64,000 nucleotides of DNA from positions 89,590,001 to 89,654,000 of the forward strand of contig OX597823.1 in assembly GCA_951406725.2 (NCBI GenBank), read 5' to 3'. The position numbers were made by a program, and so were the translations under genes. Source of the stretch: Octopus vulgaris. Lineage: Eukaryota. The notes under the pieces are model-generated. The model was not told the origin of the DNA. It made no database searches and saw only the letters and a list, made by a program, of their open reading frames with translations. Shown one piece after another: positions 693 through 61,818 of this stretch (position 1 is the stretch's first letter; each line of letters begins with the position of its first letter).

Positions 693-1661
693 ATGCATAC
701 ACATGCCGCATGCACAAACACACACACATGTATGTATGGGTATATATATGTGTGTGTGTATATATATATATATATAGTTATTAGTAAGGGATCATCAATC
801 CGGTAAAATATTTTACAAGTTCTCTGTTAGTATAGCAGGCTAACAATATCGTTTAGATGTTTTCAACTGATTAATGGGCCGATTGAGTAAGCCGATCAAT
901 AACAAACCTATAATGACTACTGGAAACAGTTGTAAGTTAAATTTACTGCATTAAAGAAATACATTATAACCATTATTTATGCCTTGTCTTGTATATCATC
1001 ATCACCATCGTTTAATGTCAGCTTTCCATGCTAGCATGGGTTGGATGATTTGACTGAGGACTGGCGAACCACATGGCTGCATCAGGCTCCAATCTGATCT
1101 GGCAAAGTTTCTACAGCTGGATGCCCTTCCTAATGCCAACCACTCTGAGAGTGTAGTGGGTGCTTTTACGTGTCACTAGCACAAGGGCCAGTCAAGCGGT
1201 ACTGGTAATGGCCATGCTCAAATGGTGTCTTGTACATGCCACCTGCACAGGAGCCAGTCCAGCGGCACTGGCAATGACCTCGCTCAAATTTTATTTTCAT
1301 GTGCCACCGGCACAAGTGCCAGTAAGGCAGCACTGGTAACGATAATACCTGAATTGTGCTTTTTACATGCCACTGGCACGAAAGCCTGTTAGCTGCTCTG
1401 GCAACGATCACGCTCGGATGGTGCTCTTAGCGCTCCACTAGCACGGATGCCAGTCGTCGAATTTGATTTCGATTTCGATTACATATGTATAGGTGCATGA
1501 GTAGCTGTGTGGTAAGTAGCTTGCTTACCAACCACATGGTTCCGGGTTCAGTCCCACTGTGTGGCACCTTGGGCAAAGTGTCTCCTACTATAGCCTTGGG
1601 CCGACTTAAGCCTTGTGAGTGGATTTGGTAGACAGAAACTGAAAGAAGCCTGTCGTGTCTA

Positions 1662-3409
1662 TCTATTATATAAAATCCATTCTGTGTGTGTCTTCTAGGA
1701 TCTAGGGCTTCCTCCATCCAATTGCGCTCAAATTTGATATGTAGATACCCACGGTATCAGGGCATGTATAAGTCTTGAAAAAATTACAAAAATCAATTCC
1801 AGGTGAGAATGCAATCGATAAAGCCGTGGGAACATATGATCGAGTACATCAGCTCTTGCATTTGATACTACGCGTACGTGAGAAAAATGCTTAAAGGCAC
1901 ATTTCTTTCCTGCCAAGCTTACAGTTTAAACCATGTTTATGTTCTCCCAGTCAACAGCCTTATCATTACTGATACTTTAAATTCTTCGGTTGCATATTTG
2001 TGTGAATAAAATCGTTTTTCTTTGGAATAGAAAAAAAGTCTATCTTTATTTCTTCTTTTGCTGGTGTCTCAAATTTAGGTTAAATCAGTGTTTCTCAAAG
2101 GGAAGGCCTGTGGGACAGTTGGACAAGTTATTTTGAGAAAATTTGGTTTAAATGTTTGACAACTCAGCACCGTCCATTGGACGTGGGGGGGGGGGGCTTT
2201 TGCTCATATATATATAATATAAATTGGACATGTGCGATCGTTGTATTCTTTCTTGTGAAAAATGGCACATATGTGGAGACGGGTGCATAGATTGGAATGC
2301 GGTTTGTATTTTTTCCTACCCCCCATAGTTACCAAGAAGATTGATTAAAACTTTTCTAATGGAATTCCCCTGCCATTAAAACAACCAGTTGCTCACACAG
2401 CCGACATATACCATTTCGCTAGCAACAAGGGGAGTACAGGATGACAGTTGGCCAAAGCCATTCATACATACATACATACATACATAACCTCTCTCTCCTT
2501 TTCTCTGTCAGTCACTCATACATTCACTCACAACAAAAAGTGAATAATAAAATTTCAGTTAACTCTCTCTCGGCCATACATAGATACATACATCTATGTA
2601 TACATACATACATTCATACACACATAACAACCTGCGTGTGTGTGTGTGTGTGTGTCACTGAAGCCATTCCTACATACATATATAACCTCTCTCTCTCTCG
2701 CTTTTTCTCTGTCATTCACTCACTACAAAAAGTGAATAAAAAAATGTCAGTTATCTCTCTCTCTCCCTCTTTCTCTCTCTCACATGTACACACACCAGCA
2801 ACATTACTCTCTCTCTGTCTCTTCAACACACAAACAAAAGCAATTCACATGCACACCACACATTCTGTCTCGCACACTCCATCAAACACACACACACACA
2901 CATGCATGCACATCAATTCTTCCGCTTCACACCAACTTCAAAAGAACTTCACTCATATAATCGCGCTCTGTCTGTCTCTTTTGCTTTCATATCGACTTCG
3001 AAAGATCCCCTTTACACCCATACCCATATTAAAAAAATATAAATTTTTTCCGGAAACTGATGATCATCTTCAAAAATGTAAATAAACACATGTGGTTTAT
3101 AAGTGGTTTGTAAGTGACAGTCATATGTTCCCATATCGAAAGATCGCCCAGTGTTTTGATGATTAGATAGAGGTCCAATAGAATAGCTCTCAGAAACAGA
3201 CTACGTACAAATTAATACTTCACAACTCCTGAAGCTGTTTTCTGACAAGGAGGTGGGATCAGGAAATTTTCATACAGCTTGAGGCTCCAATCGAAACAGG
3301 GGACCCAAAATGATAAGGTTGAGAAGTGCTGTTATAGATTATGCCTAACCGAAAACAATCACAGTTACATCATTCAAACAGACCGGGTGAAACCGGGCTT
3401 AGCTACTTG
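1662..3409 (+). mobile_element. non-autonomous Helitron-like element
   Basis: a|TCTATTATATAAAA 5' end; 3' GC-rich ccgggtgaaaccggg followed by cttagctaCTTG|t (CTAG variant); internal microsatellites; no TSD. Confidence 0.5.
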
Positions 3410-3724
3410 TATATATATATATATCATCATCATCATCAACATCATCATCATTTAATGTCCGTATGTATGTGTCTATATGTATATATATGTGTATGCATAT
3501 GTTTGTGTGTCTGTGTTTGGCCCCACCCCCACCCCACATCCTCTCTTGTCAACTGATGTTGGTGTGTTTACATCCCTGTAAATTAGCAGTTCAGCAAAAG
3601 AGACGGATAGAACAAGTACTAGGCTTACAAAAAATAAATCCTAGGGTCGATTTGGTCAACTAATGGCAGCGCTCCAGTATGGCCGTGGTCAAATGACTGA
3701 AACAAATAAAAGAATATATACATA

Positions 3725-5955
3725 CATCATCATCATCATCATCATCATCATTTAGCGTCCGTTTTCCATGCTAGCATGGGTTGGACGGTTCAACTGGGGT
3801 CTGGGGAGCCCGAAGGCTGCACCAGGCCAGTCAGATCTGGCAGTGTTTCTACAGCTGGATGCCCTTCCTAACGCCAACCACTCCGAGAGTGTAGTGGGTG
3901 ATTTTATGTGCCACCGACACAGGTGCCAGACGAGGCTGGCGAACGGCCACGCTCGGATGGTGTTTTTATGTGCCACCGACACAGGTGCCAGACGAGGCTG
4001 GCAGACGGCCACGCTCGGATGGTGTTTTTATGTGCCACCGACACAGGTGCCAGATGAGGCTGGCAGGTGCCAGACGAGGCTGGCAGACGGCCACGCTCGG
4101 ATGGTGTTTTTATGTGCCACCGACACAGGTGCCAGATGAGGCTGGCGGACGGCCACGATCGGATGGTGTTTGTTACGTCCCCAAAGCACGGAGGCCAGTC
4201 TATGCGGTACTGGCTACGGCCACGTTCGGATGATTTTCTTGTGTGCCACCGGCACTGGTACCACAAAGATACAAATTCCATTTATGTTCATCTATTTTGA
4301 TTTGTTTTGATTTGATTTGATTTTCACTTGCCTCAACAGGTCTTCACAAGTGTCACAAGAAGGAAGGTATGCACAGGTGGACTGTCTACGTCGCCGGGTC
4401 TTCGGATGGTGTCTTTATGTGCCACCGACACAGGTGCCAGATGTGGCTGGCGAACGGCCACGATCGGATGGTTTTCTTGTGTGCCACCGGTACTGGAACC
4501 ACAAAGATACAAATTCCATTGATGTTCATCTATTTTGATTTGGTTTGATTTTCACTTGCCTCAACAGGTCTTCACAAGTGTCACGCGTGTCACACACTTG
4601 CCTCAACAGGTCTCCACAAGTGTCACACACTTGCCTCTGCCTCAACAGGTCTTCACAAAGTGTCACACACTTGCCTCTGCCTCAACAGGTCTTCACAAGT
4701 GTCATAAGAGGGAAGGTATGCACAGGTGGACTGACTACGTCGCCGGGTCTTTGGATGGTGTTTTTATGTGCCACCGACACAGGTGCCAGGTGAGGCTGGC
4801 GAACGGCCACGATCAGATGGTGTTTGTTGTGCCCACAGCACGGAGGCCAGTCGATGCGGTACCAGCTACGGCCACGTTCGGATGGTTTTCTTGTGTGCCA
4901 CCGGTACTGGAACCACAAAGATACAAATTCCATTGATATTCATCTATTTTGATTTGGTTTGATTTTCACTTGCCTCAACAGGTCTTCACAAGGGTCACAC
5001 ACTTGCCTCAACGGGTCTCCACAAGTGTCACACACTTGCCTCTGCCTCAACAGGTCTTCACAAGTGTCACACACTTGCCTCAACAGGTCTTCACAAGTGT
5101 CATAAGAGGGAAGGTATGCACAGGTGGACTGACTACGTCGCCGGGTCTTCGGATGGTGTCTTTATGTGCCACCGGCACAGGTGCCAGATGAGGCTGGCGA
5201 ACGGCCACGATCGGATGGTGTTTGTTGTGCCCACAGCACGGAGGCCAGTCGATGCGGTACTGGTTACGGCCACGTTTGGGTGGTTTTCTTGTGTGCCACC
5301 GGCACTGGTACCACAAAGAATACAATTCCACTGATGTTCATCTATTTTGATTTGTTTTGATTTGATTTGATTTGATTTTCACTTGCCTCAACAGGTCTTC
5401 ATAAGTGTCACAAGAAGGAAGGTATGCACAGGACTGACTACGTCCCAGGTCGGGGCCACGGGTTATGGCCTGACTAGTCTTGCCGGGTCTTCTCATGCAC
5501 AGCATACTTCCATAGGTCTCGGTCTCTAGACATTTCCTTAGTGAGACCTAAAGTTCGAAGGTCGTGCTTCACCACCTCGTCCCAGGTTTTCCTGGGTCTA
5601 CCTCTTCCACAGGTTCCCTCCACTGCTAGGGTGTAGCACTTTTGCACACAACTATCTTCAGCCTTTCTTGTCACATGACCATACCAGCGCAGCCGTCTCT
5701 CTTGCACGCCACAACTGACGCTTCTTAGGTTCAGCTTTTCTCTCAAGGAACTTACACTCTGACGATTATGAACACTGACATTACACATCCATCGGAGCAT
5801 ACTGGCTTCATTTCTTGCGAGCTTACGCATATCCTCAGCAGTCACGGCCCATGTTTCACTACCATGTAGCATGGCTGTACGTACACATGCATCATACAGT
5901 CTGCCTTTTACTCTGAGCGAGAGGCCTTTTGTCACCAGCAGGGGTAAGAGCTCTC
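3725..5955 (-). mobile_element. 5'-truncated RTE LINE: C-terminal ORF (5474-5955) plus an expanded tandem-repeat 3'UTR and (GAT)n tail
   Basis: The ORF TKGLSLRVKGRLYDACVRTAMLHGSETW...[15 protein letters not shown] is closely similar to the 61.8-kb copy. The 3'UTR has ~57-bp units and ~410-bp higher-order repeats. Confidence 0.9.
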
Positions 5956-60938: not shown

Positions 60939-61361
60939 ATATATATATAGTTATATTGGAGTATTTCAACATATCATAATGTAATCCTTGTATTGTCCTT
61001 TTTCATGCTCTGATGATTTTCTACCCAAGGTGTTTTGAAATGCAAGATTATATATTTATATATGTTTAGTAGTTTAGATTGGATGTGAAATGAAAAAATT
61101 GTAGGTGAAGTTGTTAATTAATTAATAAATTAATTTATATCCATTGGATTTCTCCATTTTCAAACGTAATAATATTATATATATATATAAGGTTGGCTGC
61201 ATTAGAGGTTAAAATAACTGTCTAAGGGATAGAAGTATCCATTATACTACCAGTATGTTACCTATGTTTAACCATGGGCATACATATGCGAACACGTTAT
61301 ACTCATAAATTATAGGTAAAGACAATGATAGACATGAATTTATCAGGAATCAAAATTTAAT

Positions 61362-61706
61362 GAAAACAGAAAATGGAAAAATATTGATGAACAACAATTT
61401 ACTTACATCAATTATTATTTATTAATTCAATACAAATAAACTGCATCCCATCTAGTAGCTGTTTCTGCTTCTAATGTTGTATGCTATTGCCATACAGGGC
61501 TTCATCACTCTGATGAAACTCCATGTTTCAGATTGGTTTTATTAACAAATATGATAAATATTTTTAGCATATCAATGGCAATACCATACAACATCGGAAG
61601 CAGAAACCGATATTAGATGGGATGCAGTCTATTTGTACTGAATTAATAAATAATAATTGATGTAAGTCAATTGTTGTTCATCGATATTTCTCCATTTTTT
61701 GTTTTC
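61362..61706. repeat. imperfect inverted repeat, ~132-bp arms
   Basis: 61362-61493 is the reverse complement of 61575-61706 with scattered mismatches; ttcatca-ctc-tgatgaa lies between the arms. Confidence 0.9.
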
Positions 61707-61818
61707 TTTATATATATAATATATAATATATATATATATATAAACACACACATAAATATTTATATACATATATATATATCTACATACATACATACATATA
61801 CACACACATATATATATT

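Follow-up and report, generated by a model that had tools for sequence, protein, structure and literature searches.

A 64,000-nucleotide (nt) stretch of Octopus vulgaris DNA (assembly GCA_951406725.2, contig OX597823.1, positions 89,590,001 to 89,654,000 of the forward strand; here called the window) holds ten short elements with hammerhead-like ribozyme motifs. We think it very likely that these elements are the 5'-truncated 3' ends of several families of Penelope-like elements (PLEs), with minimal type I hammerheads that probably cut only when paired, and that lone intronic copies are nearly inert and kept in either orientation. The initial annotation had described a diverse, Penelope-derived system, associated with (TA)n and bearing a palindromic helix III; this description is borne out by genome-wide repeat families, by links to PLE open reading frames (ORFs), and by an excess of neighboring TA runs.

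The host of most motifs is a GH18 chitinase gene on the + strand (minimal span, 18100 to 40600), with coding exons near 18100, 28715 to 28967, 34410, 36900, and 40550. Because its exons run from about 18100 to about 40600, the eight motifs from 28317 to 37807 fall within introns; six of the eight are antisense to the host.

Hammerhead motifs in the window

Type I cores were defined as N3-U-G-A-N-N8-A with a Watson-Crick pair between positions 3 and 8, GAAA, and a UH site. A strict descriptor matched the window twice, at 32140 to 32225 and 37807 to 37851, compared with no match in each of 30 local dinucleotide shuffles. Both matches are on the − strand; the two best-preserved motifs of the chitinase gene are indeed antisense, and they alone pass the strict descriptor. 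In 160 unrelated 10-kb tiles, the same descriptor yielded 14 matches versus none in each of three shuffles, while a relaxed form allowing any 3-8 pair yielded 35 versus two to three per shuffle, and so the match rate is well above that of shuffled sequence. When helix III was left free, an exact palindrome was found in 24 of 48 matches and in none of 15 shuffle matches.

These counts bear on the idea that the motifs arose as random matches within AT-rich repeats. A scan of the window with Rfam found no hammerhead family among 136 matches to an E value of 10, only microsatellite look-alikes; the relaxed descriptor does yield chance matches (one at 41221 in the window and 2 to 11 per shuffled 1.6 Mb), and the motif at 32635 belongs to no family. 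Nevertheless, the excess of strict matches and exact palindromes, the covariation of the core pair, and the constant position of the motif downstream of PLE ORFs leave chance barely credible as a general explanation and already refuted for families A to D. The hammerhead motifs are real and above chance, yet ordinary.

Every motif listed in the initial annotation was confirmed at its position. Nine of the ten fall in six genome-wide repeat families (A, B, C, D, F, and G) of minimal type I hammerheads, so the proposal of distinct families stands for all but the singleton at 32635. First-look candidate counts from genome searches, which are not copy numbers, were 625 for family A (32140), 1,219 for B (37807), 1,946 for C (28317), 5,091 for D (30645), 1,083 for F (33720), and 992 for G (61500).

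The two intact ribozymes belong to families A and B. The family A element (32033 to 32351, −) is part of a unit of about 456 nt without an ORF link, and beyond it lies an inverted piece of the family A 3' end plus (TA)15 (32367-32438). Its hammerhead (32140 to 32225, −) has an 8-bp helix I, a CUGAUGA core, a GUC site, a long helix II closed by A.A, and a helix III that is a 12-nt palindrome. Both core strands are kept in all 20 aligned family A rows, two of which carry a 2-nt deletion that preserves the palindrome. The family B element (37694 to 38290, −), a PLE 3' end, terminates in (TA)43, and its hammerhead (37807 to 37851, −) combines CUGAAGA, a helix II closed by U.U, and AGUACU; both core strands are kept in 18 of 20 rows.

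The family C element (28206 to 28519, +), the 3' end of a PLE of apparent Neptune/Nematis type, terminates at TA runs and carries a short inverted 5' piece. Its hammerhead (28318 to 28363, +) has G10.1-C11.1, ACCGGU, and an A3-U8 core found across the family: AUGAUUA is present in 11 of 15 rows, the window copy included, while three other rows have G3-C8, a double change that probably stems from one shared event, and one row is damaged. The only private change in the window copy is a helix I mismatch. Judged from this alignment, the core at 28317 is a compensated family trait and not a lesion. The earlier statement that both sense-strand motifs of the chitinase gene are core-mutated thus holds for 30645 but not for 28317.

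Family D contributes three copies. The first (30146 to 30295, −) has a near-intact ribozyme with a U6 core (30212-30247) and CpG decay in helices II and III. The second (30570 to 30773, +) belongs to a subfamily linked to a PLE ORF, and its ribozyme (30646-30681) is broken by G8A and G12A, both of the CpG type; such decay is common in family D copies. The third (33142 to 33327, −) is flanked by two TA runs and retains a ribozyme remnant (33230-33262) from which a 9-nt deletion has taken out the cleavage site. At the family level, position 6 is U, 26 of 28 cores start with CUGU, and position 7 varies freely, while relatives and subfamilies keep A6, as do families A, B, C, and G. The intact 34-nt family D motif has 15,178 exact genome matches, compared with none for its reversed control.

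Families F and G show type I cores at the family level. An old family F copy (33511 to 33849, −), about 75% identical to its relatives, contains a ribozyme (33719-33842) with a helix II arm of about 90 nt and with ACAGCUGU, broken by G5A, and a family F fragment beside (TA)9 (777 to 1000, +; motif at 865) keeps only the ribozyme 3' half (922-939). Family G forms an inverted pair between TA runs (61190 to 61708): the + copy has a ribozyme (61505-61619) whose palindrome has decayed by three changes, and the inverted truncated copy holds only a ribozyme 3' half (61449-61469, −). Helix I of family G is bulged, and the descriptor missed this family. Finally, the singleton remnant (32632 to 32674, −) has CUGAUGA, GAAAC, and a 9-bp outer helix but no helix III, cleavage triplet, family, or TA run; a family search with it returned a single 40-nt match, located downstream of the motif, and its exact 20-mer is unique in the genome.

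In all, the window copies at 30645, 33230, 32635, 33720, and 865 fall outside the type I core definition. Antisense copies (33230, 32635, and 33720) are among the broken ones, which contradicts the suggestion that damage is a trait of the sense strand.

Connection to Penelope-like elements

In family C, same-strand PLE reverse transcriptase (RT) and endonuclease (EN) sequence lies upstream in 10 of 15 loci, ending about 200 to 300 nt before the ribozyme region; in family B, PLE RT or EN sequence lies upstream of the ribozyme on the same strand in 7 of 20 loci. The family C frame comprises an RT end, a CX4CxxC-type linker, and a GIY-YIG motif, which matches Pfam GIY-YIG with E values of 0.0015 and 0.00018, just under the cut-off. 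This frame is 61% identical to an element in tile L143 whose RT passes RVT_1; one linker cysteine is altered in family C locus L042 and intact in the L143 element. An NCBIfam scan added nothing, and an RVT_1 match in locus L026, unmatched by PLE RT queries, was set aside. The L143 element (L143:1601-5093) is in itself a fairly intact PLE of the Neptune/Nematis type, present as an inverted pair within a myosin intron; its RT frame stays open for 255 codons and its EN frame for 342.

No such PLE sequence was found in the first 15 loci of family D. A search with the family D upstream part recovered longer copies (17 new loci), and five long copies share 800 to 1,330 nt of upstream sequence. In loci L261 and L278, this shared part leads to an EN motif, a CxxCxxC linker, and an RT (tblastn E value, 5e-18); the link of family D to a PLE RT-EN was found via L261, L268, and L278. 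On the sequence evidence, the family B, C, and D pieces in the window are 5'-truncated PLE 3' ends, with a Neptune/Nematis-type linker seen in C and D.

The architecture resembles that of Neptune and Nematis, PLEs with a C-terminal EN (EN+ PLEs; Craig et al. 2021, PMC8557442), in its RT, CX2-5CxxC linker, and GIY-YIG EN, as well as in 5' truncation, inverted 5' copies, and a hammerhead near the 3' end. The CX2-5CxxC linker distinguishes Neptune and Nematis PLEs, whose targeting of microsatellites has been ascribed to it (PMC8557442); we give the putative clade here as Neptune/Nematis jointly, from linker and motifs. EN+ PLE traits found here are 5' truncation, partial tandems, and inverted 5' copies (in the window at 32367, 28206, and 61190-61708). 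In its available portion, PMC8557442 mentions cephalopods for Naiad remnants, while a report of PLE activity in an octopus genome leaves ribozymes unmentioned in the part available (PMC13282606).

Association with TA repeats is also evident. The window contains 35 runs of (TA)6 or longer, and nine of its ten elements lie within 120 nt of a TA run, so the claim that most elements abut TA microsatellites is sound apart from 32635, which has none nearby. Beyond the window, 50 of 100 copies have a run of (TA)4 or longer no more than 250 nt downstream of the cleavage site, compared with 4,017 of 20,000 random sites (20%; p=3e-11), confirming the predicted enrichment; upstream, such runs were found for 34 of 98 copies.

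Family A calls for separate treatment. It has a period of about 456 nt; among 19 other loci, 5 hold permuted copies longer than one unit, and inverted pieces occur at 7 of 20 loci. The family is likely a nonautonomous derivative copied from circular or tandem RNA. In size and permuted ends, it resembles animal retrozymes lacking long terminal repeats (non-LTR retrozymes), which are PLE-derived noncoding units that measure a few hundred nt and bear a type I hammerhead (PMC7229834; bioRxiv 10.64898/2026.07.22.740005). Unlike the retrozymes of Li et al. 2026 (bioRxiv 10.64898/2026.07.22.740005), it shows no tandem arrays with a ribozyme per unit: a direct tandem of two ribozymes was seen in 0 of 20 loci (3.2 kb each). 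One may ask, then, if all of the short elements are free-standing retrozymes or units like short interspersed nuclear elements (SINEs) that multiply as small circular RNAs, instead of truncated PLE ends. The permuted family A copies, their regular period, and their lack of an upstream ORF fit this idea, as does the fact that copies of D, F, and G are mostly short. Families B, C, and D, however, have variable 5' ends and continue into PLE coding sequence, and family A itself lacks the two-ribozyme tandem. We regard the idea as rather unlikely; it suits family A at most and there is compatible with truncated PLE ends elsewhere. By sequence comparison, B, C, and D represent the known PLE minimal hammerhead ribozyme system, and family A appears to work like a retrozyme.

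Several results weigh against truncated PLE ends with pair-dependent hammerheads as the general account. Besides the silent Rfam scan, the z-scores for single-strand folding (−1.9 to +1.1) do not stand out. Same-strand upstream PLE protein sequence was found in 0 of 20 family A loci, in 0 of 15 family F loci, and in none for family G. For family D, Pfam does not recognize the RT and EN fragments, the EN match is weak (E value, 0.002), and the ribozyme of L261 itself is deleted, and for these reasons the link of family D to PLEs is weaker. The helix II pair G10.1-C11.1, called highly conserved in PMC4209133, is missing from families A, B, F, and G, and family D has U6. Finally, intact copies lean antisense in every cut of the intron sample described below, although never significantly.

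Orientation of ribozyme copies in introns

According to an earlier proposal, ribozymes on the sense strand may be purged or disabled by selection, as they would cut the host pre-mRNA. For mammalian retroelements, the idea that intronic elements are biased toward the antisense strand is a long-standing one. In the literature searched, no strand test for PLE ribozymes was found; Li et al. 2026 (bioRxiv 10.64898/2026.07.22.740005) report that retrozymes are depleted from Xenopus introns, and the word "antisense" is absent from the available text.

Gene spans and strands were taken from myosin-head and SNF-transporter exons, giving 160 of 177 10-kb tiles (L088-L247) from 33 of 38 genes and 1,418,096 bases inside exon-bracketed spans. 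This sample draws on two gene families, host expression is unaccounted for, nested antisense genes are possible, and intactness is judged by our own descriptor. In the tiles, descriptor matches on the sense and antisense strands numbered 5:9 (strict) and 16:19 (relaxed), and family D with its relatives gave 21:21. Ribozyme-covering copies stood at 57:62 for all seeds and at 46:55 after five seed families (18 of 119 copies) had been dropped by eye as chance or SINE derived; among intact copies the ratio was 16:21, and intactness was not associated with strand (Fisher p=0.84).

Inside the 33 gene spans, 41 copies were sense and 44 were antisense (p=0.83; confidence interval [CI] of the sense share, 0.37-0.59). 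Intact copies stood at 13:20 (p=0.30; CI, 0.23-0.58) and broken ones at 28:24, while copies with a canonical core stood at 6:9, those with a long helix III stood at 6:8, and the per-gene tally was 8:8. Where intact copies had no twin of opposite orientation within 8 kb, the ratio was 8:15 (p=0.21).

The lean of intact copies, set against the broken ones, is what a purge of sense ribozymes would have in its favor, together with the six antisense motifs of the chitinase gene, which include both descriptor-perfect ones, and with the sense lean of ribozyme-free controls (RTE tail, 73:63; SINE, 132:94). None of these contrasts is significant, however, including that between ribozyme copies and controls (p=0.18). 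Moreover, descriptor-perfect canonical ribozymes with 8-nt palindromes lie on the sense strand of myosin introns (tiles L158 and L134), and in the window the 28317 core is a family state while three antisense copies are broken. We therefore hold such a purge to be improbable, and as a selective rule it finds no support in this 1.42-Mb sample, which is not genome-wide but does give the outcome, a lack of strand bias, that the initial annotation had named as refuting it. A strong purge of sense-strand copies is excluded; a mild purge of intact solo copies may be compatible with the sample.

The controls show strand patterns of their own. A tRNA-headed SINE is sense leaning in introns (132:94; p=0.014), a second SINE gave 133:103 (p=0.06), and the sense strand of introns is richer in T than in A (skew, 0.03). 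The RTE control derives from an abundant window element with internal tandem units of 62 to 67 nt and a (GAT)n tail (3760-5380, 26550-27660, 31060-32030, 50560-50840, and 60475-60940), which we take to be an RTE-type tail and which served only as a control. The window also contains Mariner transposase remnants (Transposase_1 and HTH_48; 9118-9648, −, and 25442-25870, +) and a long interspersed nuclear element (LINE) fragment at 61756-63309 (+), whose open frame of 517 codons contains RVT_1 and, after it, a PHD-like finger; pieces near 5500-5980, 29800-30100, and 60000-60300 are related to this fragment.

Probable cleavage in pairs and variation of the core

The known behavior of minimal hammerheads suggests how these elements may work. 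Singly, such ribozymes showed no cleavage, while dimers cleaved at a low level (PMC4209133), a result also summarized in a review (PMC6765202). Drawing on the literature, we envisage that a tandem PLE transcript would be cut to unit length by two ribozymes that pair via their palindromic helix III strands, that the RT-EN would nick (TA)n and copy the RNA from its 3' end, and that early termination would leave stubs of 200 to 600 nt. In that case, cleavage by lone copies in introns would be rare, in keeping with their near-equal orientation there. The active monomer fold is predicted to lie 1.8 (family A) and 5.1 (family B) kcal/mol above the best fold, and in the predicted family A fold, the palindrome can pair with the core.

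The octopus motifs share much with the minimal hammerheads of metazoan PLE pseudo-LTRs (PMC4209133): a type I layout with a short helix I and a palindromic helix III, a bulged base at the start of helix II, a U3-A8 variant, and the presence of many divergent families per genome, mostly as solo truncated copies and opposite-strand pairs. PLE hammerheads, their palindromes, and TA targeting have already been published, and the instance in the window is ordinary.

The cores differ from those of PMC4209133 in two respects. First, A3-U8 is found in family C, G3-C8 is found in three family C copies and in a 10-copy family from the tiles, and U6 is found in family D. Second, families C and D have the G10.1-C11.1 pair beside the core, and A, B, F, and G instead show A.A, U.U, or A.G there, forming a mismatch or a double bulge. 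The active hammerhead core is known to contain the C3-G8 pair (PMC3884650), and the U3-A8 swap is known in nature (PMC3088659; PMC4209133) and is the only 3-8 swap named in the available text of PMC4209133; a natural A6C variant is reported to be slow (PMC3088659). All four 3-8 pairs occur in this octopus genome.

The gene tiles add further variants. The G3-C8 tile family (GUGAACA core, 7-bp helix I, and AAUAUU palindrome) has 10 copies in 1.6 Mb, five sense and five antisense, in tiles L108, L109, L220, L233, and L247. Several U3-A8 families are also present, and a CCGACGA core, with C for U4, occurs in several copies related to family D (tiles L166, L201, L204, L129, L228, and L104). Lunse, Weinberg, and Breaker reportedly described small PLE-associated hammerhead variants with a short palindromic stem III that cleave as dimers. 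The literature searched yielded no record of A3-U8, G3-C8, U6, or a mismatch-closed helix II among naturally occurring PLE variants; Lunse et al. may list them.

For intronic PLE ribozymes, the answer at the level of this sample is that sense-strand copies are not strongly purged, which fits cleavage by dimers only. More speculatively, and with the odds in our view against it, the core variants described here may be active dimer ribozymes new to description, dozens of PLE lineages having explored the hammerhead core through all four 3-8 pairs, a U6 core now in more than 15,000 exact copies, and a mismatch-closed helix II combined with long palindromes. A3-U8, G3-C8, U6, and the mismatch-closed helix II each occur in many copies and are easy to assay. 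If active, these variants would broaden the consensus of natural hammerheads and account for their being missed by standard models.

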